From Bacteroidota bacterium (GTDB taxonomy: Bacteria; Bacteroidota; Ignavibacteria; Ignavibacteriales; Ignavibacteriaceae): a DNA stretch of 64,000 nucleotides. Positions 8,552 to 52,838 of this stretch are shown one piece after another. The notes beneath the pieces are model-generated. The model had not been told where the DNA came from and searched no databases. It worked only from the letters and a program-made list of their open reading frames with translations. The position numbers were made by a program, and so were the translations under genes. The stretch's first letter is position 1. Each line of letters begins with the position of its first letter. The stretch lies in NCBI GenBank assembly GCA_020161395.1, contig JAIUOE010000014.1, forward strand, positions 18,746 to 82,745, read 5' to 3'.

Positions 8552-8560
8552 TTTATTCTC

Positions 8561-36215: not shown

Positions 36216-39200
36216 TTAATCCTCGAAAATGTGAGATTCCGTATTTTCATTTGCTTCCGGCTTTTTCTGAGCCGGTTCATTCCTGCTCTGTGAGAATGTC
36301 GATTTGAAAGCGTCACCCAATTCTTCCCAAAGCATAAAGAATACCGGAACGAGGATAAGGGTGAGAAATGTAGCAAATCCAAGCCCGAATATAACGGCAA
36401 TTCCCATCGATTTCCAGAATTCAGCACTTTCTCCGCCAAATACAAATTTACCAGTGTAGATATCGAAGCCGAATCCAAACGAAAGAGGAATCAACCCGAG
36501 AATTGTGGTTACCGCAGTCAGTGTCACCGGTCTGAATCTTCGGAGCCCGGCATATTTTGCAATTTCCTTCAGGGCAAAATCTCTCTTCTTAAGGAGATTC
36601 ATATAATCGATAAGCACGATATTGTTATTCACTACCACACCAGCAAGACTGATCACACCGATACCTGTCATCACTATTCCAAAAGGCATTTTGAATGCGA
36701 GAAGTCCTATAAAGACGCCCACCAGCGATATGAGCACTGCCGTCATAATAATAAACGGCTGAGAAATCGAGTTGAACTGGATGACGAGTATCAGGAAGAT
36801 AAGCAAAATAGCTATACCAAACGCTTTACCGAGGAATGCAGAAGCCTCTTCCTGCTCCTGACTCTGTCCCGTAAAAGAGACGGAGTATCCCTGAGGCAAC
36901 TGGTATTCTCCCATTTTTGCCTTAACCTGATCCAGAACAGCATTTGCATTAAACCCTTCCGCAGCATCACCCGTAATGGTGATAACCCGCTTAAGGTCTT
37001 TGCGCTTTATCGCACCGGGACCCCGGTCCAGGAACACATTTGCCACACTGCTAAGGGGAACTGAAAGCGTCTTGCCGTTCTGATTATTGAAAATTATCAG
37101 GAGGTTTTTCAGCGCATCAACAGAACTTCGCTGATCCTTCCGCAGCCTGACAGTGATGTCATATTCATCCTCATTCACACGATATTTGGAAGCTTCCGTA
37201 CCGTTTATTGCCGTTCTGACAGTATTGGCGATCAGTGAAGTATTCATACCATAGACGGCTGCTCTTTTCCGGTCAATCACTACCCTGAGTTCTGGTTTTC
37301 CGGCGTCATAATCGTCATCAATATCCACCAAACCGGGGACATCCTTCAAGTATTCACGAATTTTCGCTGTGAGTTTGCCAATCTCGTTATAATCCTCACC
37401 GGAGACCTCGATATTCACCGGAAGCCCGACAGGGGGACCCATTTCCTCCTTGGCTATAGTTATGGCAGCCCCGGGGGTACCTTCAACTAATTTGCGGATT
37501 TCTTCAGTGGTCTCTTTTGAGCTCTTGTTCCGGTTTTCGTAATCGATATATTCAACCGTGATAGTGCCCTTGTTTGGAGTGGCTGCACCGGCATCAAATG
37601 GATTGGTCGATGCGCCAGCCACAGCAAGAAGCTTCTCGATATCTTTGAAGTTTGCTGTGAGGATTTTCTTTTCGATCCTGTTTATTATCTCATTTGTTTC
37701 CTTTATTCCCGTTCCGGTCGGAGCCTCAAACTTGATATATACCCTTCGGGGCTCAACATCAGGAAAGAACTCCACACCAAAACCAAAAGCTCCATAAAGC
37801 TGGGTTATAAAGAAAAGCGAAATAAATGCTCCGAAGATAAACCGCAAGCGAACATTTTTAAATACCAAAACCACCAGTATTCCAATAATCGCAGTAAGGA
37901 TAATTTCTACTGTCAGCGGAAAAAATTGAGCCAGCATCCCTTCAACAACGAACATACCGAAGAATGCCAGAATACCCAGCCAGGTTCTCAGGCTTATTTT
38001 CTTCCCCTTTTCCCGCTGTTCACCGAGCGAAAAATCGAGAAGTTTTTCATAGTATTTCAAAACTACCGGGAGCATCTTATCTACAAAAATGTATGTACCC
38101 CAGTCAAAAGGATAGGATATTATTCCAAGTAGAGTCCTTTTGAGAACCGGTCTTCCGTGATGTTCATGCTTCACAAAAACCTCTGCAAACACGGGATTTA
38201 TCACGAGAGCCACAAAAAGCGACGATGAAAGAGTAACAATTACTGTCATCGGTATGTAGTACATAAAATCGCCTGTAACACCGGGCCAGAAAAGCAAAGG
38301 AAAGAATGCGGCTACGGTTGTCAAGGTAGATGATGCCACGGGCCAGGCAACCTCTGCAGTCGCTTTCTTTGCAGCGTCTATTTTGTTGTATCCCTCCTCA
38401 AGAAACTTTTGAATATTCTCGAGGATAACTATCGCATTGTCCACGAGCATACCGAGCGCAAGGATCAAAGCAAACAGAACAACAAAATTGAGGGTGATGT
38501 CCATCATCTGAAGAATGAAGAATGAAATCAGCATGCTAAGAGGAATGGATATCCCCACCAGGATTGCATTTCTAATCCCAAGGGCAAAGAACAGGATACC
38601 GACCACGAGCACAAGCCCCGAAAAAATATTATTTTCGAGTTCTTTCACCTGCTTGTCAATCTCTTCGGATTGATCTGTCACAATCGTCAGATTTATGTCA
38701 TCAGGAAGTTGAGCATCCTTCTCGTTGATAATCTGTTTAACTTCTTCTGCAATTCTGATGATATTCTCCCCGGATCTTTTTGAGATCTGGATTGAGATAG
38801 CCTCAACATTATTTGTCCTGGCGAAGGAAGTTCTCTCTTTGAAGCCGTATGTGAGCGTTGCAACATCCTTTAGGGCAATCCCCTCACCTTCCTTTGTTTT
38901 CACAATGATGTTTTCAAGAGGATAAGGGGTTTTGAACTCACCCGGTACTCGAACCAGAAAACTTGACTGGTTTACATCGATCGTTCCTCCAGGAATTGTT
39001 TTATTTTCATCCCTGACGGCAGCAATAATATCATCAAACCTGATATTATAATGTTGAAGTTTCCTGTAATCGACATCAACCTGTACTTCTCTCTCGAGTC
39101 CGCCATTCACCTTTACTTCGAGTACACCTTTGATGGTTTCTATTTTGTCCTTAAGGTCCTCTGCGATATCCTTCAGTTTCGAAAGACCGGTTGGTCCCGA

Positions 39201-39629
39201 AAGTTCGAAAGTAAGAATCGGGAACTCTGAAAAATTGATTTCCACAATTTCCGGTTTGGTTGCATCGGCTGGAATCTCTGTTTCAGCTTTGTTGACTTTT
39301 TCTCTTACTTTTTGAAGTGCGTCCTCAATATTATAGCCGCTTTGGAACTCAACCTGAATCAGGGAGTAACCTTCAAACGAAGAGGACTGAATTTTCTTCA
39401 CTTCCGCAATTTTCTTCACTTCCTTTTCAATCGGAGTAGTAACTAAAGATTCGATATCTTCGGGTGAAACTCCGGGATAGGGGGTGGAAATGATCACAAG
39501 AGGAATGGCAATGTCAGGCGACGCCTCCCTCGGCAGCGATACATAAGAAATGAACCCCATAATCGCTATTATGAAAACGAGAACAAAAACGCTCGTTTTA
39601 TTATCAATCGAAATATCTGTAATTTTCAT
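36216..39629 (-). CDS. RND efflux transporter permease (AcrB/HAE1-like)
   Basis: 1137 aa with 12-TM AcrB architecture: MKITDISIDNKTSVFVLVF..., VFALILALGMLVDNAIVILENI, and a duplicated half. Confidence 0.9.
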   Translation of the reverse strand: MKITDISIDNKTSVFVLVFIIAIMGFISYVSLPREASPDIAIPLVIISTPYPGVSPEDIESLVTTPIEKEVKKIAEVKKIQSSSFEGYSLIQVEFQSGYNIEDALQKVREKVNKAETEIPADATKPEIVEINFSEFPILTFELSGPTGLSKLKDIAEDLKDKIETIKGVLEVKVNGGLEREVQVDVDYRKLQHYNIRFDDIIAAVRDENKTIPGGTIDVNQSSFLVRVPGEFKTPYPLENIIVKTKEGEGIALKDVATLTYGFKERTSFARTNNVEAISIQISKRSGENIIRIAEEVKQIINEKDAQLPDDINLTIVTDQSEEIDKQVKELENNIFSGLVLVVGILFFALGIRNAILVGISIPLSMLISFFILQMMDITLNFVVLFALILALGMLVDNAIVILENIQKFLEEGYNKIDAAKKATAEVAWPVASSTLTTVAAFFPLLFWPGVTGDFMYYIPMTVIVTLSSSLFVALVINPVFAEVFVKHEHHGRPVLKRTLLGIISYPFDWGTYIFVDKMLPVVLKYYEKLLDFSLGEQREKGKKISLRTWLGILAFFGMFVVEGMLAQFFPLTVEIILTAIIGILVVLVFKNVRLRFIFGAFISLFFITQLYGAFGFGVEFFPDVEPRRVYIKFEAPTGTGIKETNEIINRIEKKILTANFKDIEKLLAVAGASTNPFDAGAATPNKGTITVEYIDYENRNKSSKETTEEIRKLVEGTPGAAITIAKEEMGPPVGLPVNIEVSGEDYNEIGKLTAKIREYLKDVPGLVDIDDDYDAGKPELRVVIDRKRAAVYGMNTSLIANTVRTAINGTEASKYRVNEDEYDITVRLRKDQRSSVDALKNLLIIFNNQNGKTLSVPLSSVANVFLDRGPGAIKRKDLKRVITITGDAAEGFNANAVLDQVKAKMGEYQLPQGYSVSFTGQSQEQEEASAFLGKAFGIAILLIFLILVIQFNSISQPFIIMTAVLISLVGVFIGLLAFKMPFGIVMTGIGVISLAGVVVNNNIVLIDYMNLLKKRDFALKEIAKYAGLRRFRPVTLTAVTTILGLIPLSFGFGFDIYTGKFVFGGESAEFWKSMGIAVIFGLGFATFLTLILVPVFFMLWEELGDAFKSTFSQSRNEPAQKKPEANENTESHIFED

Positions 39630-39644
39630 GTTTTGCTGTTCCCG

Positions 39645-40712
39645 CTATCGTACATCAACTTTTTCACCATTCACAAGCGTCTGGTAACCAACAATAACCA
39701 GTGAGTCACCTTCATTCAGATTCCCTGAAAGTGCGACCCGGTTATTGCTCCGTGCCAGTATTTCCACTTGTCTCATCTCCGCTACGGTAACACCATTCTT
39801 CTTCACAACAACAAACACAACAAATCCGAGGTCAGTTTTTACAACAACTTCTTCGGGCACCACCGGAACCGAGGTGTAAACTTTATCATCAATTTTTACT
39901 TCCGCATTCATTTCGGGTTTGAATTTTCCATTATTCGGCAGCCGCATTTCCACTTTAACAGTCCGGCTTGTTGCATCCACCGATTTTGCCACATAACTTA
40001 CGGATGAATTTACCACAAGGCTGTCGAGCTCGAGGAAGATCAGACTTCCCTTTTTCCCCGGTTTAATCGAACTGACATATGATTCAGGAATTCCTGCCTC
40101 AACCTTCAGGTTATCCGATATAATTGTTACAATAGGGGCACCCGGGGCTGCCACTTCACCAATTTCGTAATGTTTTGTATCCACCACACCGGCAAAAGGA
40201 GCCTTCACAAATGTGTTTTCATACTGTTCCCTCACAGCCTCATACATTGCCTTTTTGGCGTCCCTGGTATACTTTGCCTGAAGGTACTGAAATTCCGTTC
40301 CGGCATTCTGATTATATATCTGTTCCTGCTTTTGGAGATTGATTTCTGCAAGGTCGAGGTCTGCCTTTGCTGCATCCAGATTTGCTTTCAATACTGTGTT
40401 ATCGAGTACACAAATGAGCGTGCCGGAAGCCACTCTGGCTCCCTTTTCAACATTAAATCTGACAATTTTCCCGCCTGTTGCAGAACCAACTTTTGAGATC
40501 TTGTCAGCTTTCACCTGCCCGATTACATCAATGAATCCGGTGAAATTTTCGAGTTTCACGGGTGCCACCTGAACGATGGCTTTCTTTTCAACTTTTTTTG
40601 TTTTTTCTTTTTCTTTTGAATCGTCACCTTTGCAACCTGCGATCAAAAGGGTGGTTAAAAGAAATAAAGCAGGTAAAATCAAATAGTTTTTAAAATTTTT
40701 CATCCTCGACAT
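39645..40712 (-). CDS. RND efflux periplasmic adaptor (membrane fusion protein)
   Basis: Lipoprotein-like signal ...LLIAGCKG, a coiled-coil hairpin (LDAAKADLDLAEINLQKQEQ), and a beta-barrel domain. The start is at M23 or M26, just after the TolC stop at 40717. The track ORF start at 40778 would overlap it. Confidence 0.85.
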   Translation of the reverse strand: MSRMKNFKNYLILPALFLLTTLLIAGCKGDDSKEKEKTKKVEKKAIVQVAPVKLENFTGFIDVIGQVKADKISKVGSATGGKIVRFNVEKGARVASGTLICVLDNTVLKANLDAAKADLDLAEINLQKQEQIYNQNAGTEFQYLQAKYTRDAKKAMYEAVREQYENTFVKAPFAGVVDTKHYEIGEVAAPGAPIVTIISDNLKVEAGIPESYVSSIKPGKKGSLIFLELDSLVVNSSVSYVAKSVDATSRTVKVEMRLPNNGKFKPEMNAEVKIDDKVYTSVPVVPEEVVVKTDLGFVVFVVVKKNGVTVAEMRQVEILARSNNRVALSGNLNEGDSLVIVGYQTLVNGEKVDVR

Positions 40713-40716
40713 TCTG

Positions 40717-42045
40717 TTATTCACCACTTTCCTTTCCGGATAAATTTTCAAGTTTCGACAAAAGGAGGTAGTATTCATACACTCCGTTCAAATAGTTATA
40801 TTTGGCTCTCGCTACACCCGTTTGTGAATCGATAATTTCAAGCTGGGTGCCGACACCCGATTTGTAACGGGTTTCAGACAAAGAATAAGCCAGTTCAGCC
40901 TGTTTTACAGCTTCTGTGTAAGCTTTTAATTTTTCCTTCTGATTTTCTATCTTGAGAATTGTCTCTTTAATCTGAGTCGCATAACCTTCTTTGGCTTTTT
41001 TAAGATTTTCCTGAGCAATTTTCACTTCAAGTTCCGCCTGTCTTACCCTTGAATCGGTACTCCAACCGTTGAATATTGGAACAGAAAGCTCAAGCCCGAG
41101 ATTAATCGAGTTATTAAATCTCCAGCTTCCGATTCCTCTGGAGTCATTTTCCTGAGATTCGATATTCCAGGCACCATATGCTTTCAGAGAAGGAAGATAT
41201 TCCGATTTGTAAACACCTACAGCTTTTTTACGAAGTTCTATCCCCTGCTCGAGCTGTTTAATGTTCGGATTGTATTTAAACATTCTCTCGACCACCAGGT
41301 CAAAACCTGAGAGAGGCATATCGTTGTAAACGAGTGTGTCGGTTACATCTATTTCCATCGTGTAACTGAGTCCCATTATGTTCTTCAGCGCATCCTTTGT
41401 AAGTTTCAATGCATTGTTTGCCTGATCAAGTTCCGGTTTCGCTGTTTCAACCGCTACTTTCGCTCTTACCAGATCATATTCGGGAACGAGTCCTGCATCA
41501 TATTTTATTTTTGTGTTTTTCAGGTTGTCTTCTGCCTGTGCGAGATTCGCCTGAGCCACTTTCAACACTTCCTTTGTGACAAGAATACCGAACCAGGCTG
41601 ACTTAACCTGGTACTTTATCTCTTCCTCTGTTGCAGTCACCTGATGGTCTGCAATCCGGGCATATATTTCAGCCGCCTGAGCGCCAATGAACACGGCGCC
41701 GGCAAATATGTTTTGTGTAAAACTGAGTGAAGTGGTGAGAGTGTTATCTGTACCTATGGGGAAAGTACCGCTGAATCCGGGTGCATCAATTGTAAAGACA
41801 CCTTTTTTAAGAGCCCTGCGGTAATTCACTGAACCCCTGACATCAGGGTATACTGCCGTACCCCAGGTTTCATCCACTTTTTCGTAGGCAATTCTTTTGT
41901 TTAGATTGCTGGTTTTCAGATCATAGTTATTCTCGAGTGCAATGGTAATAGCCTTTTCGAGATTAACAACTATCTTCTCTCCCTGCTGTGCAAAGAGAAT
42001 CGGGGTGAGGATTAAAATAATTGATACTACAACTTTTATTTTCAT
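40717..42045 (-). CDS. TolC-family outer membrane efflux protein
   Basis: Signal peptide followed by the duplicated OEP repeat pattern (LEKAITIALENNYDLK...; YLPSLKAYGAWN...). Confidence 0.85.
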   Translation of the reverse strand: MKIKVVVSIILILTPILFAQQGEKIVVNLEKAITIALENNYDLKTSNLNKRIAYEKVDETWGTAVYPDVRGSVNYRRALKKGVFTIDAPGFSGTFPIGTDNTLTTSLSFTQNIFAGAVFIGAQAAEIYARIADHQVTATEEEIKYQVKSAWFGILVTKEVLKVAQANLAQAEDNLKNTKIKYDAGLVPEYDLVRAKVAVETAKPELDQANNALKLTKDALKNIMGLSYTMEIDVTDTLVYNDMPLSGFDLVVERMFKYNPNIKQLEQGIELRKKAVGVYKSEYLPSLKAYGAWNIESQENDSRGIGSWRFNNSINLGLELSVPIFNGWSTDSRVRQAELEVKIAQENLKKAKEGYATQIKETILKIENQKEKLKAYTEAVKQAELAYSLSETRYKSGVGTQLEIIDSQTGVARAKYNYLNGVYEYYLLLSKLENLSGKESGE

Positions 42046-42247: not shown

Positions 42248-42988
42248 TTATTTAAAATTGACCGGAATGAGCATCTGAACTTTTACCGGTTTACCATCTT
42301 TTTTCCCCGGAGAAAATTTGGTTCTCCGAATGGCAGAAAGCGCTGAGTTATCGCAGGCAGGATGTATTCCCTTTGTCAGCACGACAGAGGCTACATTTCC
42401 CAATTCGTCAATGAATGCAGTAACATAAACTGTTCCACTCACTCCCGCGTCTTTTGCTGCCTGAGGAAAGACCGCCTTGCTTTGTATTGCTTCATATCCG
42501 CCGATCGGGACGGGCATGTACGGGACGGCAGTATAATAGACATTATCCTTGGGAGCGTTGGTTTTCCCGTCCTTTTCCGTCGATTTTGTATTTGTTTCTT
42601 TGTTTTTGAATTTTCCCTGTTTATCCAGAGTCAGGAGATCACCTTTGTCTATATCCTGACTTTCAAGTTTTATTTTTTCTTTTGGAGGGGTTAGAGTAAC
42701 CTCAATTTCCTTGTTTATTGCAACTTCAGTTTCGGTTTTCGCTATTTTTGGTTTGAGAACTGTCGGTTCACTCTTCTTTTGTGGAAGCTCTTCCTCTTTC
42801 CTGTTGTCCGGAAGCTCAATTGCATCGTCAAGTTCAATTAAATCTTCCCCTTTTGCAAGAGGATTTGTTACATTTTTTGAGAAGGGGTATAACCGGAACA
42901 GTATGATCATCAAAAAAAGCACAAAAATCGCGCTTATTTCCAACGATTGTCGATATGTCCGTTTTAGATTATAGTATGAACCGGTCAT
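42248..42988 (-). CDS. TonB-family energy transducer
   Basis: N-terminal TM anchor, K/E/P-rich linker, and a C-terminal TonB domain PQAAKDAGVSGTVYVTAFIDELGNV...KFSPGKKDGKPVKV. Confidence 0.75.
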   Translation of the reverse strand: MTGSYYNLKRTYRQSLEISAIFVLFLMIILFRLYPFSKNVTNPLAKGEDLIELDDAIELPDNRKEEELPQKKSEPTVLKPKIAKTETEVAINKEIEVTLTPPKEKIKLESQDIDKGDLLTLDKQGKFKNKETNTKSTEKDGKTNAPKDNVYYTAVPYMPVPIGGYEAIQSKAVFPQAAKDAGVSGTVYVTAFIDELGNVASVVLTKGIHPACDNSALSAIRRTKFSPGKKDGKPVKVQMLIPVNFK

Positions 42989-43018
42989 CTCTAAAAGTTT
43001 TTATGAATCATACAGTTT

Positions 43019-43414
43019 TTACCTGTAAAACCTGGGAAAAGTTCTAAAAACAACGAATGCAACAGCCAAACCCAATGCGGCACCGTTAATATCAGCAAGA
43101 ATGTCGTACCACTCGAAAAACCTTCCGGGAATCAGTAATTGATGGACTTCATCCAAAACCCCATAAACCGAAGCAATAATGAACGATTTTTGCAACAATT
43201 TGATGTCCGCAGTTCCCGCCTCATCTTTAAGCCTGAACCAGTTAAAAAGTAAAAAACTAAGTACAGCATACCCGGCGAAATGATTTAATTTGTCACCCGA
43301 TGGAGTATCAGGCAGGCTGCTCGACGGAAGGGTGGTTCCAAGAAACAGAATCAGCCAATATACGACCAGAACGACTAAAGCGACGGTTTTTTTCTTCTGC
43401 CTGTCAAGAGTCAT
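43019..43414 (-). CDS. VanZ-family membrane protein
   Basis: DKLNHFAGYAVLSFLL...DEVHQLLIPGR...DILADINGAALG. It overlaps the nnr end by 4 nt. Confidence 0.75.
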   Translation of the reverse strand: MTLDRQKKKTVALVVLVVYWLILFLGTTLPSSSLPDTPSGDKLNHFAGYAVLSFLLFNWFRLKDEAGTADIKLLQKSFIIASVYGVLDEVHQLLIPGRFFEWYDILADINGAALGLAVAFVVFRTFPRFYR

Positions 43415-45009
43415 GCAAACTCGTCAATTTTTTTTATTGCGGCTGGTAAATTTTTGATCATTGATGATGCAGAAATAAAAACACCCGGTGATTCTTTTGC
43501 CAAAATAATTGCAGACAGATTGTAGGTGTGTATTGCATCAGCAATCCGACTTGCAAAAAATTCCATTGTGTCGAAATGTTGTTCTATAAGCAATCCAGTG
43601 ATTTCCTCAATCTCGAGTGCAGGTAATGCAAGCAACTGCGCAAAAGTCGATGCAATCACACCGGCGAGTCCGTCACCCGTCCCAAATTTGGCAAGTGCAT
43701 CAAATCCGGAGTCGATTATATAATTGACACCCACAGGAGTGGAGATAAAGACCGCTGCATGTTTAAGTACCAGAATGCAACCTGTTTCTTTAGTGAAGTC
43801 TTCGACTGCCTTGAAGATGTTTTTCTCGATCAGTTCCAAAGGTTTTCCGATGATCATTGCAAACTCTCCGGTATGAGGCAGCAATATCTTCCCTTTAAGA
43901 TCATAATTTTTATAGTTACCTCCATGAAGCGGTGCCAGGGCATCTGCATCGAGAATGACCAGACGATTATTCATGGCAAGAATCTTCTCAAGTGCGACTG
44001 TTGTTTCGGGGGATCTGCCGATACCTGGACCGGCAAGCAACACTTCCTTTTTCTCCAAAGCATCATAAACAGTTTTTATCGAATCGGAATTAAAATTCAC
44101 GGAAAATTCATTGATAACCGCCTCGGGAACATTCGCCATCAACACAGCGGATGCTTTTTCGGAAGTGAAAATTACCGGTGACCCCGAACCTGAGTAAAAA
44201 GCTGCCTGGTAAACGAGAGATGCCGAACCAGGATATCTGTTTGATCCTGCAATTATTACCGGACCTCCTGATGTATATTTGTTGATAGTGCGTTTTTTTG
44301 CAGGTACAACACTCCTGACATCACTCATCTCATAGAGAGACCAGTCACTCTCAAGCTCAAGCTGCTCCTCTTTAATTCCGATATACCCGTTGTCGATCAC
44401 ACCCCGGCTATCCATTCCCTTGCCGTAAAAATATCCCTTTTTTAATGTACAAAGTGCAACGGTGTAATGGGCTTCGAAAACAATCCCTCCATTACCTGTG
44501 TCAGGATCAAGTCCTGAAGGTATATCGATGGCAACTTTTACAGCTCTTAGTTCATTCAGTGCAACAATTATCTCATCATAGGGATACCTTGGCTCGCCCT
44601 TGGAACCGGTTCCGAGAAGTGCATCAACAATCACATAGCATGAGGCAATAAGTTCTTTTAACTGTGTGACACTTTGATATTGGAAAATTGATATGTCGCC
44701 TGCAACTTCTGTCAAAAGTTCGAAAGCATTTCCTGCATCTTCAGAGAACTCGTCAGGGTCATCCACAAAAACCACCGTCACTCTCCAGTCCATGTCACGA
44801 AGATGACGCGCCGCCACAAAACCATCGCCGGCATTGTTTCCCTTACCGCAAATAATGGCAACTGTCTTCGTTTCAGCCTGAACAGTTTCGAGAAAAGAAG
44901 CCACACTTCTTCCGGCATTCTCCATCAGAATCATGCTTTCAAAACCGAAATCCTCGATTGCTATTCTGTCAGCTTCACGGGCTTCTGCGGCATTTAGTAC
45001 AAGTCTCAT
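43411..45009 (-). CDS. nnr: bifunctional NAD(P)H-hydrate repair enzyme (epimerase/ADP-dependent dehydratase)
   Basis: YjeF_N domain (AAEAREADRIAIEDFGF..LMENAG..CGKGNNAGDG) plus a C-terminal carbohydrate-kinase domain (GTGDGLAGVIAS). Confidence 0.85.
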   Translation of the reverse strand: MRLVLNAAEAREADRIAIEDFGFESMILMENAGRSVASFLETVQAETKTVAIICGKGNNAGDGFVAARHLRDMDWRVTVVFVDDPDEFSEDAGNAFELLTEVAGDISIFQYQSVTQLKELIASCYVIVDALLGTGSKGEPRYPYDEIIVALNELRAVKVAIDIPSGLDPDTGNGGIVFEAHYTVALCTLKKGYFYGKGMDSRGVIDNGYIGIKEEQLELESDWSLYEMSDVRSVVPAKKRTINKYTSGGPVIIAGSNRYPGSASLVYQAAFYSGSGSPVIFTSEKASAVLMANVPEAVINEFSVNFNSDSIKTVYDALEKKEVLLAGPGIGRSPETTVALEKILAMNNRLVILDADALAPLHGGNYKNYDLKGKILLPHTGEFAMIIGKPLELIEKNIFKAVEDFTKETGCILVLKHAAVFISTPVGVNYIIDSGFDALAKFGTGDGLAGVIASTFAQLLALPALEIEEITGLLIEQHFDTMEFFASRIADAIHTYNLSAIILAKESPGVFISASSMIKNLPAAIKKIDEFA

Positions 45010-45024
45010 CCAACTCTCACATTC

Positions 45025-45082
45025 AAAAAAAAAGCTGTATCGCGAGGCTCCGGATCAACCGGCAGCACACTCTCGATACAGC
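45025..45082 (-). terminator. rho-independent terminator after nuoN
   Basis: The minus strand has a long imperfect hairpin GCTGTATCGAG...CTCGCGATACAGC, which encloses an inner CCGG-TTGAT-CCGG stem. It is followed by TTTTTTTTT. Confidence 0.7.
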
Positions 45083-45101
45083 CTGAAAAATAAAAAATTA
45101 A

Positions 45102-46529
45102 TTAAAATTTCGAGATCAGGTTTATTACCGAACCCGGCAAAATTCCCATCAATGCAATCAGGATTGCTGACACTATTATACCGGTCATTGCGGGATTCGA
45201 GTTAACAATCTCAAGTTTTGATTCATCTTTACTGAAGTACATCACGACTACGAGTCTCAAATAAAAATATACACTTATTACCGAAGAGATAATACCAACA
45301 ATCGCGAGCCATACAAGATTTGATTCGATAGCCGAGATAAACACATAGTATTTCCCGAAGAAACCCGCAAATGGAGGGATTCCTGAAAGAGCAAACATGA
45401 AGAGTGCAAGGAGACCGGCAAGAAGCGGGTATTTGGTACCCAAACCGGCATAGTCACTAATCTGAAGATTCTTCTCCTCTTTATCCTCGATCATAGAGAT
45501 GATTCCGAATGCACCAAGATTCATAAAGGAGTAGGCTGCCAGATAGTAGATCAGTCCGTCAATCCCTCTGTCGTTACCGGCTGCAAGACCTATCAGCATA
45601 TAACCCGCATGTGCAATTGAGGAATAAGCCAGCATTCTCTTGATATCGGTCTGCAGAATGGCTGTTATACTTCCGTAAAGCATCGAAAGGGTAGCAAAAA
45701 ACGCAATCATCGGTGTGAGTACTTCACTCGCTCTCTCTTTGGCAAATGCGGGTGAAACGACGAGAATAAGTGCTGCAAAAGCTGCAGTTTTACCACCTGT
45801 CGACATGATTGCCGTGGTTGCTGTCGGTGCTCCCTGATACACATCGGGAACCCACATGTGAAAAGGAACCGCCGCGATTTTGAAAGCAAAACCAATAAAG
45901 AAAAGGGTGAGTCCGATGATTCCAATTATATTAGTTTTGTCAAATGTAAATGACTGGAACAAAAGCGCAATGTTCAGTGTATGCGACGAGCCGTAAAGGA
46001 GTCCCAGACCGTAAACAATAAACCCTGTTGCGAAGGAGCCGAGAAGAAAATACTTCAAAGCAGCTTCGTTCGAAAAAGGTCTTTTACGCGCAAATCCGGC
46101 AAGAATGTAGAAACAAAGAGACATTTGCTCGAGACCAATGAAAATCATCACCAGATCACGGGCACTGGCTATCATCATCATTCCCAATACCGCCGATTGC
46201 AGAAGTATGTAAAACTCTCCATGATAAATTCCGGTTTTACGGAGATAGTCCACAGAAAGGAGAGTGACTATTGCTGCACCAAAATTGAAAATGAAGTAGA
46301 AAATGTTGACCTGTCCACCTGTTGCCAGCATTCCGTTAAAGAATATTCCCTGATCACCGACAGACAAGAGCGATTGGTAAGACACCACAAGAAAACTGAC
46401 CACAGTCAGCCATGGGATTATCTTTTCCGCACTCTTGACATACATCTCGATCACGAGGGAAATTAAAATAATCGATGCCAGAATTACCAGCGGGAGATAG
46501 CTATATATGTCTGTTATGTTAAAATCCAT
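45102..46529 (-). CDS. nuoN: NADH-quinone oxidoreductase subunit N
   Basis: 14-TM antiporter-like subunit with FHMWVPDVYQGAPT and MLAYSSIAHAGYML motifs. Confidence 0.9.
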   Translation of the reverse strand: MDFNITDIYSYLPLVILASIILISLVIEMYVKSAEKIIPWLTVVSFLVVSYQSLLSVGDQGIFFNGMLATGGQVNIFYFIFNFGAAIVTLLSVDYLRKTGIYHGEFYILLQSAVLGMMMIASARDLVMIFIGLEQMSLCFYILAGFARKRPFSNEAALKYFLLGSFATGFIVYGLGLLYGSSHTLNIALLFQSFTFDKTNIIGIIGLTLFFIGFAFKIAAVPFHMWVPDVYQGAPTATTAIMSTGGKTAAFAALILVVSPAFAKERASEVLTPMIAFFATLSMLYGSITAILQTDIKRMLAYSSIAHAGYMLIGLAAGNDRGIDGLIYYLAAYSFMNLGAFGIISMIEDKEEKNLQISDYAGLGTKYPLLAGLLALFMFALSGIPPFAGFFGKYYVFISAIESNLVWLAIVGIISSVISVYFYLRLVVVMYFSKDESKLEIVNSNPAMTGIIVSAILIALMGILPGSVINLISKF

Positions 46530-46531
46530 AC

Positions 46532-46894
46532 CTACTCAATAAATAAAATGTCATGTTCAGTTTCTTCAATTGTTGCCACATGCGAGTCAGTTCTGTAGAC
46601 TGCCAGTTTCATGTGTTTAGTAATATCAAATATGTCGTCCTCTTTTTCAACGACGACGATTTTTATATTATCATACTTCGATAAAGTGTCACGAAGAGAG
46701 TTGTATTCCAGAAAGTAAAGGCTGGTATATAGATCTTCCTCTACAATGTTAATCCCTCTTGAACTGGGTGAAAAATCAGTAATTATATCTTTTTCGACCA
46801 CGACCTTAAGAAATCTTCCCTTGAAAGGGAGAATCAGTCTGTTACCGTAGAGATAACCGGTCTTCTTTTCAGCAAGGCAACTCTTTATTGTCAT
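46532..46894 (-). CDS. hypothetical soluble 120-aa protein encoded inside the nuo operon
   Basis: Uninterrupted ORF with 2-3 nt gaps to both neighbours. No TM segment and no recognised motif. Confidence 0.5.
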   Translation of the reverse strand: MTIKSCLAEKKTGYLYGNRLILPFKGRFLKVVVEKDIITDFSPSSRGINIVEEDLYTSLYFLEYNSLRDTLSKYDNIKIVVVEKEDDIFDITKHMKLAVYRTDSHVATIEETEHDILFIE

Positions 46895-46897
46895 TGA

Positions 46898-48361
46898 CTA
46901 ACCTCTGAAAAATATGAACCATATTATTGCATAAACGGGCAATAAAACGGGCAGTGAATACTTAATTATATACTCAATAAAACTTGGAACCCTGACACCG
47001 GCTCTTTCTGAAATCGACTTAACCATAAAATTGGGTCCATTTCCAATATATGTCATGGCACCGAAGAAAACTGCACCAACCGAAATTGCGGTCAGGTATT
47101 GTACCGCATCGGGATTCTGCAGGAAAAGCTGAGTTTGTGCAGCTCCGCCGTTCAAATCATAACCAAATTTCCCCATGGCAGCACTCATAAAGTTCAGATA
47201 GGTCGGGGCATTATCCAAAAAGGATGAAAGAGCACCGGATGCCCAATAAAAGAGTGAACTTGTGAATACATCGCTGTTTTCACGGGCCATGTCAGCTATC
47301 AGTCTCAGTGCCGGAACCATCGTAAAGAAGATTCCCACGAACAAATACGCCACTTCTTTAATAGGCGCAAAATCAAATTCATTTGCCTTTAGTATCTTTT
47401 CATCAGCAGTTTTGTAAGCGGCAAACACCACACTGAACATTATGATTTCCCTGATTCCAACGGGTAACGGATCAAGTGAAGGTACCCATGACAAGACAGC
47501 CGGATCAAGGAAAACCGATAAAATGATTATCGCCAGATAGCCAAGGTTTTTCAGCCCCTTCAATTCGATCTTCCCACTGTAAGTTGTTTCATCATTTGCT
47601 CCGGCTTTATTAGCCCTGTCGAGCAAAAAGAAGATGGAAAGAATCATGAAAATCGCCAAAATCCAAATCAGCCAAACCTGCTCTATCACCCAGAAAAAAG
47701 GAACTCCTTTAAGGAATCCGAGAAACAGTGGCGGATCTCCGATCGGAGTAAGAGCACCACCCGCATTGCTTATCACAAAAATAAAAAATATGATGTGGTA
47801 CGGCTTTATTCTTCCTTTGTTCATTCTCATAAATGGACGAATCAGAAGCATGGACGCACCGGTTGTTCCAATCACATTAGCGATTACTGCTCCAAAAAGC
47901 AGAAAAAGCGTATTTGCAAGAGGTGTGGCTTTTTTGTCCACTTTTATCAGAATGCCACCACTCGCAACGAACAAAGAACTCAGCAGGGCGATGAATGACA
48001 GGTATTCAACAAGTGTATGCTTAAGACTCGTAAAATCATTCAGTATCGCTGCGTAATAAACAGCAACTATCAGACCCAAAAAGATGGCTACCTTGTGATA
48101 GTTGTGCTCCCAAAAATGTTGAAAAAACAAAGGGGCAATGGCTATCAGCAACAAAAGCAGAATGAAAGGGATTACCAGATACGGACTTGGTGAAGAACCG
48201 TGATGCGCACCGGTCTCTGTTGTCTTTGCTTTATCAGTATGAGAAAGAACAGTTTCCTGTTTTGTTTTATCTGTTGAATCTTTCGATTCACTTCTTATTT
48301 CGCTGTTAAATAATATGAACAGTGTAAAAAAGGCTGCGAAAAAAAGTGCTGCGTGCCTCAT
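46898..48361 (-). CDS. NhaD/ArsB-superfamily ion transporter (putative Na+/H+ antiporter) encoded inside the nuo operon
   Basis: Polytopic membrane protein. The GASMLLIRPFMRMN...ISNAGGALTPIGDPPLFLGFLKGVPFFW block is typical of NhaD-like 'sodium:proton antiporter' proteins. It starts 3 nt after the nuoM stop. Confidence 0.7.
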   Translation of the reverse strand: MRHAALFFAAFFTLFILFNSEIRSESKDSTDKTKQETVLSHTDKAKTTETGAHHGSSPSPYLVIPFILLLLLIAIAPLFFQHFWEHNYHKVAIFLGLIVAVYYAAILNDFTSLKHTLVEYLSFIALLSSLFVASGGILIKVDKKATPLANTLFLLFGAVIANVIGTTGASMLLIRPFMRMNKGRIKPYHIIFFIFVISNAGGALTPIGDPPLFLGFLKGVPFFWVIEQVWLIWILAIFMILSIFFLLDRANKAGANDETTYSGKIELKGLKNLGYLAIIILSVFLDPAVLSWVPSLDPLPVGIREIIMFSVVFAAYKTADEKILKANEFDFAPIKEVAYLFVGIFFTMVPALRLIADMARENSDVFTSSLFYWASGALSSFLDNAPTYLNFMSAAMGKFGYDLNGGAAQTQLFLQNPDAVQYLTAISVGAVFFGAMTYIGNGPNFMVKSISERAGVRVPSFIEYIIKYSLPVLLPVYAIIWFIFFRG

Positions 48362-48364
48362 ATT

Positions 48365-49867
48365 TTATTTTGCCAGGGCGTTCATCACCGTATTTACAAT
48401 ATTTGATGAAAACGCTTCGGATAACCTCAAGAAAGTTGAAGGATAAATTCCTATCCAAACAATGAATAGCAGTAATGGCGCGAGAGTAATTAACTCCCGG
48501 GTATTCAGATCAGTAAGTGAATTCATTTTTTCATTCTTTACTGTCTCCAAACAAACTCTCTGATACATCCAGAGGAGATAAACAGCAGCAAAGATAACAC
48601 CCGATGCCGCTATTATTGAAAAATAAGGACTGACAAGGAGTGGTGACTTGAATGAACCCACCAATATCAGGAATTCACCAACAAATCCGTTTAATCCCGG
48701 AACACCTATTGATGAAAGAGACACAATCAAAAGAATTGTGGCATAAACGGGCACTATTTTCGCAATTCCGCCGTAATCAGCTATCTCACGGGTGTGAGTT
48801 CTTTCGTAGATATAACCCACTAAAAGGAAGAGTGCCCCTGTTGAAAGACCGTGATTGACCATCTGTATTATCGCTCCCTGCATCGACTCAATGGTCAATC
48901 CAAAAATACCCAGAACTACAAATCCAAGGTGGGATACTGATGAATAGGCAACAAGCTTTTTCATATCCTTTTGCACCATCGCCACAAGTGCACCATAAAT
49001 TATGCCGATAACAGCCAGTGTGGTAATGTAAGGGGCAAAAACTTTTACCGCATCAGGAAACAACGGTAAATTAAATCTTATTAGACCATATGTACCCATC
49101 TTCAGCAGTACACCGGCAAGTATTACCGAGCCTGCGGTCGGAGCCTCGACATGCGCATCCGGCAGCCAGGTGTGAAGTGGAAACAACGGGACTTTTATGG
49201 CGAAACTAAGAGCAAAAGCGGCAAACAACAGATTTTGCTTAGAAGGATCGATTGCAGGTCCTTGTTTGTAGAGTTCGATAAGGTCAGTAGTAAACGCGGT
49301 TCCCGAATTTGCAAGCCAGATTATGGCAACGAGCATCACAAGAGAACCTGCCATAGTGTAGATAAAAAATTTCACAGAAGCGTAGATTCTGTTTTTGCCG
49401 CCCCATATACCGATTATGAAGTACATCGGAATGAGCATCGCTTCCCAGAAAATGTAGAAAAGGAAAAGATCGAGCGACATGAAAACGCCAAGCATTCCCG
49501 CTTCGAGCATCAGCATGAAGAAAGTAAATTCCTTTACTTTTACATCAATACTCGACCATGTGGAGAGAAGTGCCAGAGGTGTCATAAATGTTGTAAGGAG
49601 AACGAGCAGGAGAGACATTCCGTCCAGACCTACATGGTAATAAATTCCGAGTCCCTTTACCCACTCATATTTTTCTGCAAACTGGAAATTTACACTTTCG
49701 GCATTGAAATTAAAATATGTGAATAATGAGACAACAAAAATCACGAGCGAAATCACAAGCCCTGTTATCCTGGTCAACCTCAAATTTTCTTTGGGTAACA
49801 TCAGGACCAGCATCGAGCCGGCAATGGGAAGAAGTAAAAGAAGACTCAATATATAACTTTTATCCAT
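48365..49867 (-). CDS. nuoM: NADH-quinone oxidoreductase subunit M
   Basis: LFPLHTWLPDAHVEAPTAGSVILAGVLLKMGTYG motif. Confidence 0.9.
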   Translation of the reverse strand: MDKSYILSLLLLLPIAGSMLVLMLPKENLRLTRITGLVISLVIFVVSLFTYFNFNAESVNFQFAEKYEWVKGLGIYYHVGLDGMSLLLVLLTTFMTPLALLSTWSSIDVKVKEFTFFMLMLEAGMLGVFMSLDLFLFYIFWEAMLIPMYFIIGIWGGKNRIYASVKFFIYTMAGSLVMLVAIIWLANSGTAFTTDLIELYKQGPAIDPSKQNLLFAAFALSFAIKVPLFPLHTWLPDAHVEAPTAGSVILAGVLLKMGTYGLIRFNLPLFPDAVKVFAPYITTLAVIGIIYGALVAMVQKDMKKLVAYSSVSHLGFVVLGIFGLTIESMQGAIIQMVNHGLSTGALFLLVGYIYERTHTREIADYGGIAKIVPVYATILLIVSLSSIGVPGLNGFVGEFLILVGSFKSPLLVSPYFSIIAASGVIFAAVYLLWMYQRVCLETVKNEKMNSLTDLNTRELITLAPLLLFIVWIGIYPSTFLRLSEAFSSNIVNTVMNALAK

Positions 49868-51807
49868 CAGAAACTCAATATTATCCAGAATAATGTACCT
49901 GTTATTGCTATCATCATTATGACAGCATAAAACTGTGTCACGCCGGTTTGAAACTTTCGTGCATAACCTGATGCAAAATCAATAACTTTCGCTGTGCCGT
50001 TTACGGCTCCATCAATTATTTTGGCATCAGTAAACTTAAACAAAACGGAATCAGAGAGCTTCACTAACGGTGTGATGATAACTTTCTGATAAAACTCATC
50101 TACGAAATATTTGTTTAGCAGAGTTTTATAAACTCCTTTGAAAGATTCGGATATACTTGTGGCAATTTCCGGTTTTCTCAAATAGATATGTCTTGCGAGC
50201 ATTATTGAGGCAACTGCTCCAACTACAGAAGTTGCCATCAGAAGATATTCCTCAAGATGAGAATGAATGTTACCGGTCGAGAGTTTGCGTGTTGCATCCT
50301 TGAAAATTGGTGCCAACCACACTTCAAACAGATTGCCATGTTCCCCAACAAATACTTTCGGAAGTCCGATAAATCCGCCAATTACTGACAAAACAGCCAA
50401 AACAATCAGAGGAATCACCATAATATTCGGGGATTCGTGGGGATGTACACGATGGTGGTCGAATCTCTCTTTCCCCTCAAAAGTAAGAGAAAGAAGTCTG
50501 AACATGTAAAATGCAGTCATTAAGGCAGTAATTGCTCCAATTATCCAGAAAAACAATCCACCATTCGCATAAGCCATCCAGAGTATTTCATCTTTCGAGA
50601 AAAAGCCGGAAAGAGGGGGAATTCCTGAAATTGCCACAGCCGCAATCGCAAAAGTGAGATATGTTTTTGGCATATACTTTTTTAAGCCGCCGTAGTTTCT
50701 GATATCCTGTTCCTCGTGCATGCCATGTATTACTGAACCCGCACCAAGGAATAAAAGTGCTTTGAAGAAAGCGTGTGTCATTACATGAAAGATACCTGCG
50801 GAGAAGGCTCCCATTCCGAGAGCAAGAAACATGTAACCCAACTGACTCACAGTGGAATACGCCAGAACTTTCTTTATGTCATTCTGAACCAGTCCGATTG
50901 TGGCTGCAAAAAGAGCTGTGAACAATCCGATTATTGCTACCACCATCATTGCAGTCGGTGCCATCGCAAAAATTACTGATGTTCGGGCAACGAGATAAAC
51001 ACCCGCAGTAACCATCGTTGCAGCATGGATAAGGGCAGATACAGGGGTCGGACCTGCCATCGCATCAGGCAACCATACAAAAAGAGGAATCTGTGCCGAT
51101 TTTCCGGTGGCTCCGATGAAGAGGAATATTGCAATTGCCTCAAATATCCAGGGTTCTATCCCCGATCCGGCAACAAGTGGCAATACTTCGCTAAAATTTA
51201 AACTTTTGAAGTAGTAGAAAACAAAAAACATTGCAACGAGAAAACCGAAATCACCGATTCTGTTAACTACAAATGCCTTTTTGGAGGCATCAGCTACAGT
51301 TCCTTTTTCAAATTTTCTGTCGTAATAAAAACCGATGAGCAGGTATGAACATAATCCCACCCCTTCCCAACCGAGGAACAGAAGAACAAAATTGTCGGCG
51401 AGCACCAGATTCATCATAGCAACGATGAAGAGGTTCATGTAGGCAAAAAACCGCCAAAAACCTTTATCTCCATGCATGTACCCGATTGAGTAAACATGGA
51501 TAATAAATCCAACACCTGTGACAATTAGCGACATGGTGAGAGATAACTGGTCGACCTGATAGCTGAATGCAGCATCAATACCGCCTGCTTTTATCCAGGT
51601 AAACCATTTTATTATCCGGCTCCGCTGATCAGCAGGTAATCCGAGGGTTTCGAAAAAAGAGAAAACTACGACCAGGAATGCGAGACCAACCATGCCGGCA
51701 CCAATTCCGCCGACAATCTTCTCGTTTTTGATCAGTCTCCCAAACAGCCCGTTGATCAGAAATCCGATCAATGGGAAAAGCACTGCCAAGTAAATGTATT
51801 CTGTCAT
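49867..51807 (-). CDS. nuoL: NADH-quinone oxidoreductase subunit L
   Basis: WLPDAMAGPTPVSALIHAATMVTAGVYL motif. Length 646 aa with a C-terminal lateral-helix region. Confidence 0.9.
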   Translation of the reverse strand: MTEYIYLAVLFPLIGFLINGLFGRLIKNEKIVGGIGAGMVGLAFLVVVFSFFETLGLPADQRSRIIKWFTWIKAGGIDAAFSYQVDQLSLTMSLIVTGVGFIIHVYSIGYMHGDKGFWRFFAYMNLFIVAMMNLVLADNFVLLFLGWEGVGLCSYLLIGFYYDRKFEKGTVADASKKAFVVNRIGDFGFLVAMFFVFYYFKSLNFSEVLPLVAGSGIEPWIFEAIAIFLFIGATGKSAQIPLFVWLPDAMAGPTPVSALIHAATMVTAGVYLVARTSVIFAMAPTAMMVVAIIGLFTALFAATIGLVQNDIKKVLAYSTVSQLGYMFLALGMGAFSAGIFHVMTHAFFKALLFLGAGSVIHGMHEEQDIRNYGGLKKYMPKTYLTFAIAAVAISGIPPLSGFFSKDEILWMAYANGGLFFWIIGAITALMTAFYMFRLLSLTFEGKERFDHHRVHPHESPNIMVIPLIVLAVLSVIGGFIGLPKVFVGEHGNLFEVWLAPIFKDATRKLSTGNIHSHLEEYLLMATSVVGAVASIMLARHIYLRKPEIATSISESFKGVYKTLLNKYFVDEFYQKVIITPLVKLSDSVLFKFTDAKIIDGAVNGTAKVIDFASGYARKFQTGVTQFYAVIMMIAITGTLFWIILSF

Positions 51808-51829
51808 ATTTCGTGGGGTGTTTAGTAGA

Positions 51830-52132
51830 TTACCACTTTAAAATGTTAATTTCATCTATGTTAATTGTAACTTTATTCCTGAAAATGGCTATGATGATTG
51901 CCAGACCGATAGCTACTTCGGCTGCTGCGACTGCCATTACAAAAAAAACAAAAAGCTGCCCTATCACATCTCCAAAGAAAGATGAATATGCAACAAAGGT
52001 CAGGTTCGCTGAATTTAACATCAGCTCTATCGACATAAATACCACAATGGCATTCCGTCTGGTAAGTACACCGGCAACCCCGGTAACAAACATAAAAGCA
52101 CTTAAAATAAGGTAATATTCGAGTGGGATCAT
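51830..52132 (-). CDS. nuoK: NADH-quinone oxidoreductase subunit K
   Basis: 100 aa, 3 TM segments, [24 protein letters not shown]. Confidence 0.9.
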
Positions 52133-52140
52133 AACTGAAA

Positions 52141-52650
52141 CTAATCCAATTTCTTTTTAGATAATATCAATGCACCAATTGTAGCCGTAAGCAGTACAAA
52201 CGCAATCGCTTCGAACGGAAGAAGATAAGTTGTATACAATTCCTTTCCGATGTGTTCAATTGTACCAATTTCCACTCTGGTATTCTCGTCAACAACCTTA
52301 CCGGGTAATGTGAAAAAGATGGAATAAACCATCTGGGCGAACATCAAAAAAGCAATTACAATGGCGAGAAATTTCTGCTGGGGTCTCTCTTTGAAGTAAG
52401 ATTTCTCCTGTTCCGGTCTCAGGAGCATCAAAACGAACAGGAATAAAACCATGATCGCTCCGGCATATACTATTACCTGAACAACAGCTAAAAACTGGGC
52501 TCTGAGCAATAAATAGATTCCGGAGAGGGCTCCAAAATTAAGTACAAGAAATAGTGCGGAAATAACAGGATTTTTACGGGTTACCATCAAAACAGATGAT
52601 GCTACCGCTATTAGTGCAAAAAATCCAAACAATCCCTGTTCCAAGGTCAT
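52141..52650 (-). CDS. nuoJ: NADH-quinone oxidoreductase subunit J
   Basis: 169 aa, [26 protein letters not shown]. It is the first gene of the cluster. Upstream is a 188-bp intergenic region shared with divergent hrcA. Confidence 0.85.
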
Positions 52651-52838
52651 CGAAAACTTCCTGATTTGGTAGTTTAAAACTCAAAATTAATCAAATTCAA
52701 ATATAAGTTTTTAAGAGTACTTAATCAAAAAATTTAACGACCGGTGGGGAAAATTCAAAACATTTTTCGCCCCGTTTGAATTGCTTATATTTGCAGGTTA
52801 AATACTTTTAAATTTTTAAAACCGGAGTAACCTGAAAA

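Follow-up and report, generated by a model that had tools for sequence, protein, structure and literature searches.

A putative NhaE-type antiporter gene and a small orphan gene between nuoM and nuoN in a complex I operon of the Ignavibacteriales

A stretch of 64,000 nucleotides (nt) from a Bacteroidota bacterium of the Ignavibacteriaceae (assembly GCA_020161395.1, contig JAIUOE010000014.1, positions 18,746 to 82,745 of the forward strand), in the following called the window, contains an operon for the membrane arm of respiratory complex I in which two additional genes are located between nuoM and nuoN. The first encodes a permease of 487 amino acids (aa), a putative Na+/H+ antiporter of the NhaE type, and the second a protein of 120 aa, named P120, from an orphan family. 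On balance, the two genes probably represent an old passenger module of the nuoJKLMN operon that is co-expressed with complex I and nevertheless autonomous, so that the coupling would be regulatory and not structural, with P120 as the partner of the antiporter. According to this reading, an ancestral and vertically inherited module of antiporter and P120 would sit between nuoM and nuoN, and a single promoter ahead of nuoJ would drive transcription as far as the terminator that follows nuoN. The supply of the antiporter would thereby be tied to that of the respiratory proton pump, and part of the proton-motive force generated by complex I could be spent on the extrusion of Na+, which would serve Na+ cycling and the homeostasis of the cytoplasmic pH and Na+ concentration. 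Because the coupling would be one by co-expression, the module would be able to persist when the nuo genes are gone.

Seven open reading frames (ORFs) are arranged back-to-back on the minus strand in the order nuoJ-nuoK-nuoL-nuoM-permease-P120-nuoN. The complex I genes were assigned to nuoJ (positions 52141 to 52650, 169 aa; PF00499 with E = 1.4e-43 and the NuoJ models of NCBIfam), nuoK (51830 to 52132, 100 aa; PF00420 with E = 3e-29, NF004320 with 124 bits), nuoL (49867 to 51807, 646 aa; TIGR01974, 755 bits), nuoM (48365 to 49867, 500 aa; TIGR01972, 624 bits), and nuoN (45102 to 46529, 475 aa; TIGR01770, 418 bits), and all four of these bit scores were above the respective cut-off. The permease gene is at positions 46898 to 48361 (PF16980, CitMHS_2, 475 bits) and the gene for P120, which has conserved homologues and no family match, at positions 46532 to 46894. 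The genes nuoL and nuoM overlap by 1 nt, and the gaps around the inserted genes are 3 nt between nuoM and the permease gene, 3 nt between the permease gene and P120, and 2 nt between P120 and nuoN. A first-pass annotation of this DNA had reported the same gene order and gaps of 2 to 3 nt, and both are borne out by the ORF coordinates and the identities from Pfam and NCBIfam. In composition, both inserted genes resemble the nuo genes, the permease gene with a guanine-plus-cytosine (GC) content of 0.417 overall and of 0.414 at the third codon position. The nuoJKLMN cluster stands alone, with the divergent genes hrcA-grpE-dnaJ upstream, a terminator and nnr downstream, and no other nuo gene adjoining. 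Scans of the window for Rfam families and tRNAs gave no matches.

The divergent intergenic region of 188 nt between nuoJ and hrcA-grpE-dnaJ holds a candidate operon promoter on the minus strand (positions 52698 to 52729), which was recognized solely by its match to the Bacteroidetes-type consensus TTTG-N20-TAnnTTTG and ends 48 nt upstream of the ATG of nuoJ. This consensus occurs four times in the window and not once inside the operon. A sigma-70-like match, TTGATT-17-TATATT at positions 52728 to 52700, overlaps with the candidate promoter. At the other end, an intrinsic terminator on the minus strand (positions 45025 to 45083) was found, a long GC-containing hairpin that begins 19 nt past the stop codon of nuoN and is followed by a run of 9 U. 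The hairpin has a folding energy of −31.6 kcal/mol (z = −4.68), and none of 200 shuffled sequences folded as well; it had been overlooked by the automatic scan because its loop is long. The matches of that scan inside genes, 12 compared to 7.6 ± 2.7 by chance, were near expectation. The single clear terminator after nuoN that had been noted before is thus real as a sequence feature, and gaps of 2 to 3 nt, one promoter-like site, and one terminator are consistent with co-transcription of the permease gene and P120 with the nuo genes.

The occurrence of this arrangement was surveyed with a profile of the antiporter in one genome per species, and the best 80 of at least 589 genome matches were evaluated. 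The loci were annotated by ORF calling, BLAST against the proteins of the window, and a hidden Markov model (HMM) of P120. For each of the two inserted genes, the nearest homologues belonged to genomes and metagenomes of the Ignavibacteriales and Ignavibacteriaceae. Among the best 80, the order antiporter-P120-nuoN was present in 16 genome loci of the Ignavibacteria clade, 15 of them with nuoM directly upstream; the contig of the sixteenth begins inside the antiporter gene. The usual surrounding block consisted of a gene for a class II aminoacyl-tRNA synthetase (aaRS) followed by nuoJKLM-antiporter-P120-nuoN-nnr-vanZ, and four more metagenome places with the same block were reached from divergent P120 proteins. 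Three Kryptonium-like loci (L062, L070, and L074) have the order nuoJKLM-antiporter-nuoN with no small gene, and Rubricoccus marinus and a Rhodothermaceae genome have nuoJKLM-PF16980-Pterin_4a-nuoN, in which the Pterin_4a gene is pcd for a pterin-4a-carbinolamine dehydratase (PCD), as confirmed by NCBIfam. A neighbor-joining tree of the antiporters agrees with the taxonomy, which indicates that the nuo-embedded state is old and vertically inherited and did not result from a recent insertion. Such a recent insertion, which would have left the layout absent from close relatives, is also rejected because the layout has been kept across Ignavibacteria, Kryptonia-like, and Rhodothermales genomes. 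The earlier view that the genes are not there by chance holds, with the order recurring in 16 independent genome loci and four metagenome places, whereas the arrangement, described as rare in that annotation, is the norm within this lineage.

Several single loci of the survey deviate from these patterns. In a locus of the Melioribacteraceae (L005, positions 5929 to 8748), nuoM and nuoN flank two tandem antiporter genes, the products of which share 66% identity, and P120 is lacking. In a metagenome-assembled genome (MAG) of the Planctomycetia (L079, 427 to 7395), the order is nuoJKLMN-antiporter, with the antiporter gene following nuoN after a gap of 3 nt. The antiporter family is thus associated with the membrane-arm operon a second time, at a different position and in another phylum. 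In a deep Ignavibacteriota MAG (L072, 4439 to 7239), a nuoM-like gene that is split into two overlapping ORFs by a frameshift or as a pseudogene is located directly upstream of the antiporter gene, and in the absence of nuoJKL or nuoN nearby this locus may represent what is left of a decaying operon. Two Rhodothermales loci (L081, 10614 to 11159, and L082, 10376 to 10909) contain directly after nuoN a gene for a conserved protein of 177 to 181 aa, which is unrelated to P120 and had no Pfam or NCBIfam match.

The module also occurs without adjacent nuo genes. Three loci of the Ignavibacteria (L003, 5887 to 7701; L012, 585 to 2335; and L014, 1212 to 3011) have the order aaRS-antiporter-P120-nnr: nuoJKLM and nuoN are cleanly absent from the locus, and the antiporter gene, P120, and the outer neighbors are in place. 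By identity of antiporter and P120, the nearest relatives of these three loci were nuo-containing loci and not one another. This suggests, within the limited resolution of the comparison, that the nuo blocks were lost more than once from antiporter loci. In four Chlorobiota-like loci, the antiporter gene is followed by a distant P120 homologue, again with no nuo genes, and in Cytophagales, Bacteroidia, and Verrucomicrobiota, the antiporter gene is found alone and away from nuo genes. The nuo-less Ignavibacteria loci and the Chlorobiota-like pairs indicate that P120 goes with the antiporter and not with complex I, and that the module is independent of adjacent nuo genes. Beside one stand-alone antiporter gene in a Bacteroidia MAG (L019, 7387 to 7737), a gene for a very hydrophobic protein of 116 aa starts after 4 nt, and this protein looks by eye like a fluoride channel of the CrcB type.

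Evaluation of these distributions needs to consider that the position may be of purely historical origin. One ancestral insertion may have been held in place by an operon structure that is hard to break, with no adaptive link to complex I. The autonomy of the module, which survives the loss of the nuo genes, would agree with such hitch-hiking, as would the many lineages that run the same antiporter from elsewhere and the interchangeability of the gene in the slot before nuoN, which can hold P120, pcd, another copy of the antiporter gene, or nothing. The position and the tight gaps, however, were kept although the identity of the antiporters falls to about 50% between lineages, and the junction of nuoN and the antiporter gene in the Planctomycetia MAG, also a tight one, is independent of the others. 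Hitch-hiking is therefore judged to be rather unlikely, albeit the alternative that survives best.

A structural coupling of the module to complex I is less likely still. The antiporter, together with P120, would dock onto the membrane arm as a lineage-specific accessory module, so that Na+ exchange would occur within or beside H+ pumping. The location of the gene exactly between those of two membrane-arm subunits with gaps of 2 to 3 nt speaks in favor of this possibility, and so do the conservation of the position in three deep lineages and the second association after nuoN in the Planctomycetia. Moreover, a transport of H+ to the outside and of Na+ to the inside was proposed for complex I of Rhodothermus marinus (Batista 2010, as cited in PMC3464577). 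The inward direction of this proposed Na+ movement, however, is opposite to that of a Na+/H+ antiporter driven by the proton-motive force. The three Ignavibacteria loci keep antiporter and P120 with both nuo blocks gone, the antiporter occurs without nuo genes in Chlorobiota-like, Cytophagales, and Verrucomicrobiota genomes, and the tandem antiporters of L005 do without P120. An obligate or physical coupling is unsupported because these three loci kept the module without nuo genes and because most relatives have the antiporter gene away from them. The functional coupling between complex I and Na+/H+ exchange that had been suggested from the first reading thus stands in the weak sense of co-expression, and not in the obligate or physical sense, which is weakened by the three nuo-less loci and the stand-alone antiporters. 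A more specific version, in which the antiporter and P120 (in Rhodothermales PCD instead of P120) are physically attached to the membrane arm of the 14-subunit enzyme in Ignavibacteria and form a respiratory supercomplex that directly couples redox-driven H+ pumping to Na+ exchange, is given the same low probability. If it were true, P120 would represent a novel type of accessory subunit, with a fold not seen before, that docks via its invariant C-terminal tail ILFIE.

The complex I subunits themselves are fully canonical. NuoL contains the motifs WE in transmembrane helix 5, GKSAQIP in helix 7, HxxxHxxxK in helix 11, and GFFSKD in helix 12; NuoM contains FWEAM, AIKVP, LLKMG, and GFVGEF, and NuoN GLEQM, AFKIA, GGKTA, and GFFGKY in helices 5, 7, 8, and 12, respectively. 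The best relative of NuoM in the PDB was NuoM from Paracoccus (E = 1.8e-134). All three proteins keep the canonical charged residues, Glu in helix 5, Lys in helix 7, Lys or His in helix 8, and Lys or Glu in helix 12, the roles of which are established for complex I. A compensation by the antiporter for degenerate pump residues of NuoL, NuoM, or NuoN was considered and rejected, as no degenerate residue was found in them. The antiporter is consequently an addition and does not replace a broken pump module, and the canonical state of these subunits also counts against the structural coupling discussed above.

The assignment of the permease relies on PF16980, its best Pfam match; PF03600 also scored above the cut-off with 44 bits, on a part of the protein only, and this match is overlaid by that of PF16980. 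No relative was found among the PDB sequences at an E value of up to 1. Since the R. marinus protein was not among the matches listed, Rhodothermales relatives stand in for it, and the comparison with the NhaE proteins of R. marinus and Neisseria meningitidis was made via proxies from Rubricoccus marinus and Neisseria gonorrhoeae. The permease is 52% identical to its positional counterpart in the operon of Rubricoccus marinus and 37% identical (E = 1e-90) to a PF16980 protein of N. gonorrhoeae, which itself reached 624 bits with this model. The N. gonorrhoeae homologue was found by tblastn of the plasmid collection, once per chromosome, and has all long motifs in common with the permease. The motifs common to the permease and both proxies are GTTGASMLLIRP, TPIGDPPLFLGF, FLDNAPTYL, and YIGNGPNFMVK. 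Two of the N. gonorrhoeae records in that collection, L086 (NZ_CP119140.1) and NZ_CP119142.1, are 2.17 Mb in size and are chromosomes filed as plasmids, with almost no gene table.

The R. marinus antiporter, initially named NhaD, was reclassified in 2006 as the founder of the NhaE family (TC 2.A.111); it mediates resistance to Na+ but not to Li+ and is active at pH 6.5 to 7.5 (PMC9408914). The family was separated from NhaD since its founder lacks the putative Li+-coordinating residues of NhaD and does not handle Li+, and NhaE from N. meningitidis (Sousa 2013) was likewise characterized experimentally as a Na+/H+ antiporter (PMC9408914). Due to the PF16980 assignment, the identities of 52% and 37% to the Rhodothermales and Neisseria proteins, and the reclassification in R. 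marinus, the permease is best called NhaE-type, and the resemblance to the proxies is strongly suggestive of this. The first-pass label "NhaD-type" is the older name for this permease of the ion transporter (IT) superfamily and is outdated, since the protein apparently groups with NhaE. The AlphaFold2 (AF2) model of the permease, with a predicted local distance difference test score (pLDDT) of 75, has the predicted fold of the elevator-type IT superfamily, and the best folds found with Foldseek were those of ArsB, Pho90, VcINDY, and NaDC3 (probability 1.0). At the N terminus, a hydrophobic helix resembles a signal peptide; a disordered linker rich in Ser, Thr, Lys, and His (residues about 23 to 58) comes next and precedes the conserved core. 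This linker includes the sequence TETGAHHGSSPSP, and a comparable His/Glu-rich stretch, which includes HAEEGGHGDPPP, is located just before the first core helix of the Rubricoccus orthologue.

The permease may carry another substrate, such as citrate, arsenite, phosphate, or K+, as many members of the IT superfamily do, but this is regarded as very unlikely. The Pfam title of PF16980, "putative citrate transport," the PF03600 score above the cut-off, and the identity of the nearest solved folds would fit, and no NCBIfam family matched the permease even at an E value of up to 10. On the other hand, the similarity to these anion carriers is at the level of the fold and the superfamily only, with TM-scores of about 0.5 and 12 to 14% identity (14% for ArsB, PDB 10tp), and the only characterized members traced to the family, NhaE from R. 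marinus and N. meningitidis, are Na+/H+ antiporters. The closeness to the Rhodothermales orthologue and the long motifs common with the Neisseria protein point in the same direction. The principal domain is PF16980 with 475 bits versus 44 bits for PF03600 (CitMHS), and the NCBIfam search gave no match to an ArsB family, so that a grouping with arsenite or citrate carriers, raised earlier as a possible objection, was not observed for either sequence family. The names given to homologues by the submitters, "sodium:proton antiporter," "citrate transporter," or, from JGI, "NhaD/arsenite permease-like," are all automatic.

P120 is a real gene, and its product is a conserved soluble beta-protein of an orphan family that is restricted to this lineage. 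The homologues number 127, with lengths of about 121 aa and identities down to 43%; all are unnamed and from Ignavibacteria, and the gene is under clear purifying selection. Invariant residues are Y16, R19, P23, F24, D40, Y60, and K78, and the C-terminal tail ILFIE is nearly invariant. A profile search in 1.84 billion representative proteins yielded only 48 clusters at 50% identity, all of them short proteins, so that P120 was never a domain within a larger protein. It is acidic and soluble, with an isoelectric point of 5.2 and a grand average of hydropathy of −0.16, and the AF2 model (pLDDT of 89.4) is almost entirely composed of beta structure, with the tail residues 117 to 120 scoring below 50 and being unstructured. 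Pfam gave no match for any of 42 members of the family and NCBIfam none for P120, and a fold search in PDB and BFVD was likewise negative (best E = 0.1, TM-score of 0.46). Three candidate identities were rejected. As a diverged PCD, P120 would have to be related to PF01329, which none of 42 members matched, and the secondary structure is different. A loose R...D-x-S spacing had suggested a PilZ-like receptor for cyclic di-GMP; the structure match had a probability of 0.14 and a TM-score of about 0.3, and the reading was discarded because the motifs do not fit, with a single Arg and no Gly at position +5 in the alignment. Weak COX2 matches in 7 of the 42 members (best E = 0.006) were not accompanied by a cupredoxin fold match or Cys ligands and were considered to be noise.

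In 22 of the 23 loci having P120, the gene is directly downstream of the antiporter gene, and in the remaining one (L020), it follows about 740 nt further on. P120 may nevertheless serve complex I instead of the antiporter, as an assembly factor or accessory subunit in the role of PCD in Rhodothermales. It is located where pcd is found in Rhodothermales, immediately ahead of nuoN at a distance of 2 nt, and is small and cytoplasmic like known bacterial accessory subunits. The 23 loci, however, include the three Ignavibacteria and four Chlorobiota-like loci in which P120 stays with the antiporter gene in the absence of nearby nuo genes; it is missing from the nuo operons of Kryptonia-like genomes and of Rhodothermales, in whose loci no P120 relatives were found when they were sought, and it is unrelated to PCD (probability of 1.4% in hhalign with the Rhodothermales protein). 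A function of P120 for complex I is accordingly improbable. P120 as the cytoplasmic accessory or regulatory partner of the antiporter would agree with these data, and it possibly docks through the ILFIE tail.

The reading of an old, co-expressed, and autonomous passenger module has to be weighed against a number of points that reduce its strength. Promoters hidden in the coding sequence may exist. Co-expression with complex I is not necessary for the function of the antiporter because in most of the relatives from Cytophagales, Bacteroidia, and Verrucomicrobiota the gene is located away from nuo genes. The Na+/H+ specificity of the permease is deduced by homology at 37 to 52% identity to proxies, with the Pfam title referring to citrate transport and some members of PF16980 being annotated accordingly as "citrate transporter." The assignment of P120 as a partner comes from gene neighborhood, and a comparison of the antiporters for residues specific to the P120-associated clades gave nothing convincing. 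P300 and G302 of the antiporter are mere clade markers that are also present in Rhodothermales, so that no docking site can be deduced from them.

Downstream of the terminator, nnr for a bifunctional NAD(P)HX epimerase/dehydratase (minus strand, positions 43411 to 45009; PF03853 and PF01256) is probably a separate transcript. The genes nnr, vanZ, and tonB follow nuoN in the window (minus strand, 42248 to 45009). The order nnr-vanZ has been kept across the Ignavibacteria (L001 to L017 and L083 to L085), nnr after nuoN is also present in the Kryptonia-like loci, and tonB after vanZ was seen in the window and in L083 to L085. A gene for NAD(P)H repair that is kept beside those of the NADH dehydrogenase may be more than a coincidence. 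Further downstream (minus strand, 36216 to 42045), the window contains an ordinary-looking efflux operon of the resistance-nodulation-division type, with an AcrB-type pump of 1,137 aa, a membrane-fusion protein, and an outer-membrane factor.

The nhaD-pcd pair in the complex I operon of R. marinus has been a single-species curiosity since 2005, and it fed a debate on the handling of Na+ by complexes I. The core arrangement is thus already known from one species. What is new is that it occurs regularly across Ignavibacteria and Kryptonia-like genomes, that an orphan family tied to the antiporter takes the place of pcd, and that natural deletion variants exist. In at least three deep lineages, namely Ignavibacteria, Kryptonia-like genomes, and Rhodothermales, the embedded antiporter now proves to be of ancient origin and regularly present in the split operon for the 14-subunit complex I, and the small gene of the slot is specific to the lineage. 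P120 now stands as a distinct orphan family, its proteins being about 120 aa long, for which the fold is predicted with confidence and the genomic partner is evident. The experiment of separating the antiporter from complex I was already done by nature, since some loci have lost the nuo genes and kept the antiporter. Melioribacter roseus and Ignavibacterium album, which are in culture, are natural organisms for asking if antiporter and complex I co-migrate. If the coupling is only regulatory, the outcome is a tidy result on annotation and evolution and not a new mechanism.

Among the known systems, NuoL, NuoM, NuoN, and the Mrp antiporters likewise reside in the membrane and transport cations or protons, and the nuo genes of this kind are encoded alongside the antiporter gene. 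The inserted gene nevertheless encodes an IT permease of an unrelated fold and family, and not a Proton_antipo_M protein (PF00361). NhaD (TC 2.A.62), known from Vibrio, Alkalimonas, and Halomonas, belongs to the IT superfamily and presumably catalyzes the same reaction, but the R. marinus homologue of the window protein has been placed outside of NhaD (PMC9408914). For NhaD from Vibrio cholerae, Asp344 and Thr345 are functionally critical according to the title of a reference in the same source (PMC9408914). With the NhaE proteins (TC 2.A.111) of R. marinus (Melo 2006) and N. meningitidis (Sousa 2013), the window protein shares PF16980, as represented by the proxies; the dedicated small partner gene sets it apart from the characterized members, with which none has been described. 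The genome paper of M. roseus lists ndhJKLM as Mros0138 to Mros0135 and ndhN as Mros0132. This numbering implies two intervening genes, which were passed over without comment, and no antiporter is mentioned. Within the collection of papers searched, none linked I. album with both an antiporter and the NADH dehydrogenase.

The nearest counterpart is the nqoB operon of R. marinus, which reportedly consists of nqo10 to nqo13, nhaD (later NhaE), pcd, and nqo14, with the genes said to be co-transcribed. PCD has been reported in purified complex I of this bacterium. As far as its title on record tells, the publication by Melo et al. 2005 (BBA 1709:95) deals with R. marinus nhaD and pcd together with complex I genes. 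The separate nqo10-14 cluster with a permease, to which the first-pass annotation had compared this operon, was matched by the layout in Rubricoccus marinus and in the Rhodothermaceae genome. Both the R. marinus operon and that of the window are separate nuoJ-to-nuoN clusters in which nuoM and nuoN enclose an IT antiporter gene from one and the same Pfam family, with tight spacing and one gene for a small soluble protein between antiporter and nuoN. They differ in the gene that occupies this slot, which is P120 for an orphan beta-protein here and pcd there, and in the host, a member of the Ignavibacteriales with a mesophilic GC content (42%) here and of the Rhodothermota there. The window antiporter is also shorter than the Rhodothermales antiporters, being devoid of their long internal loop and N-terminal extension.

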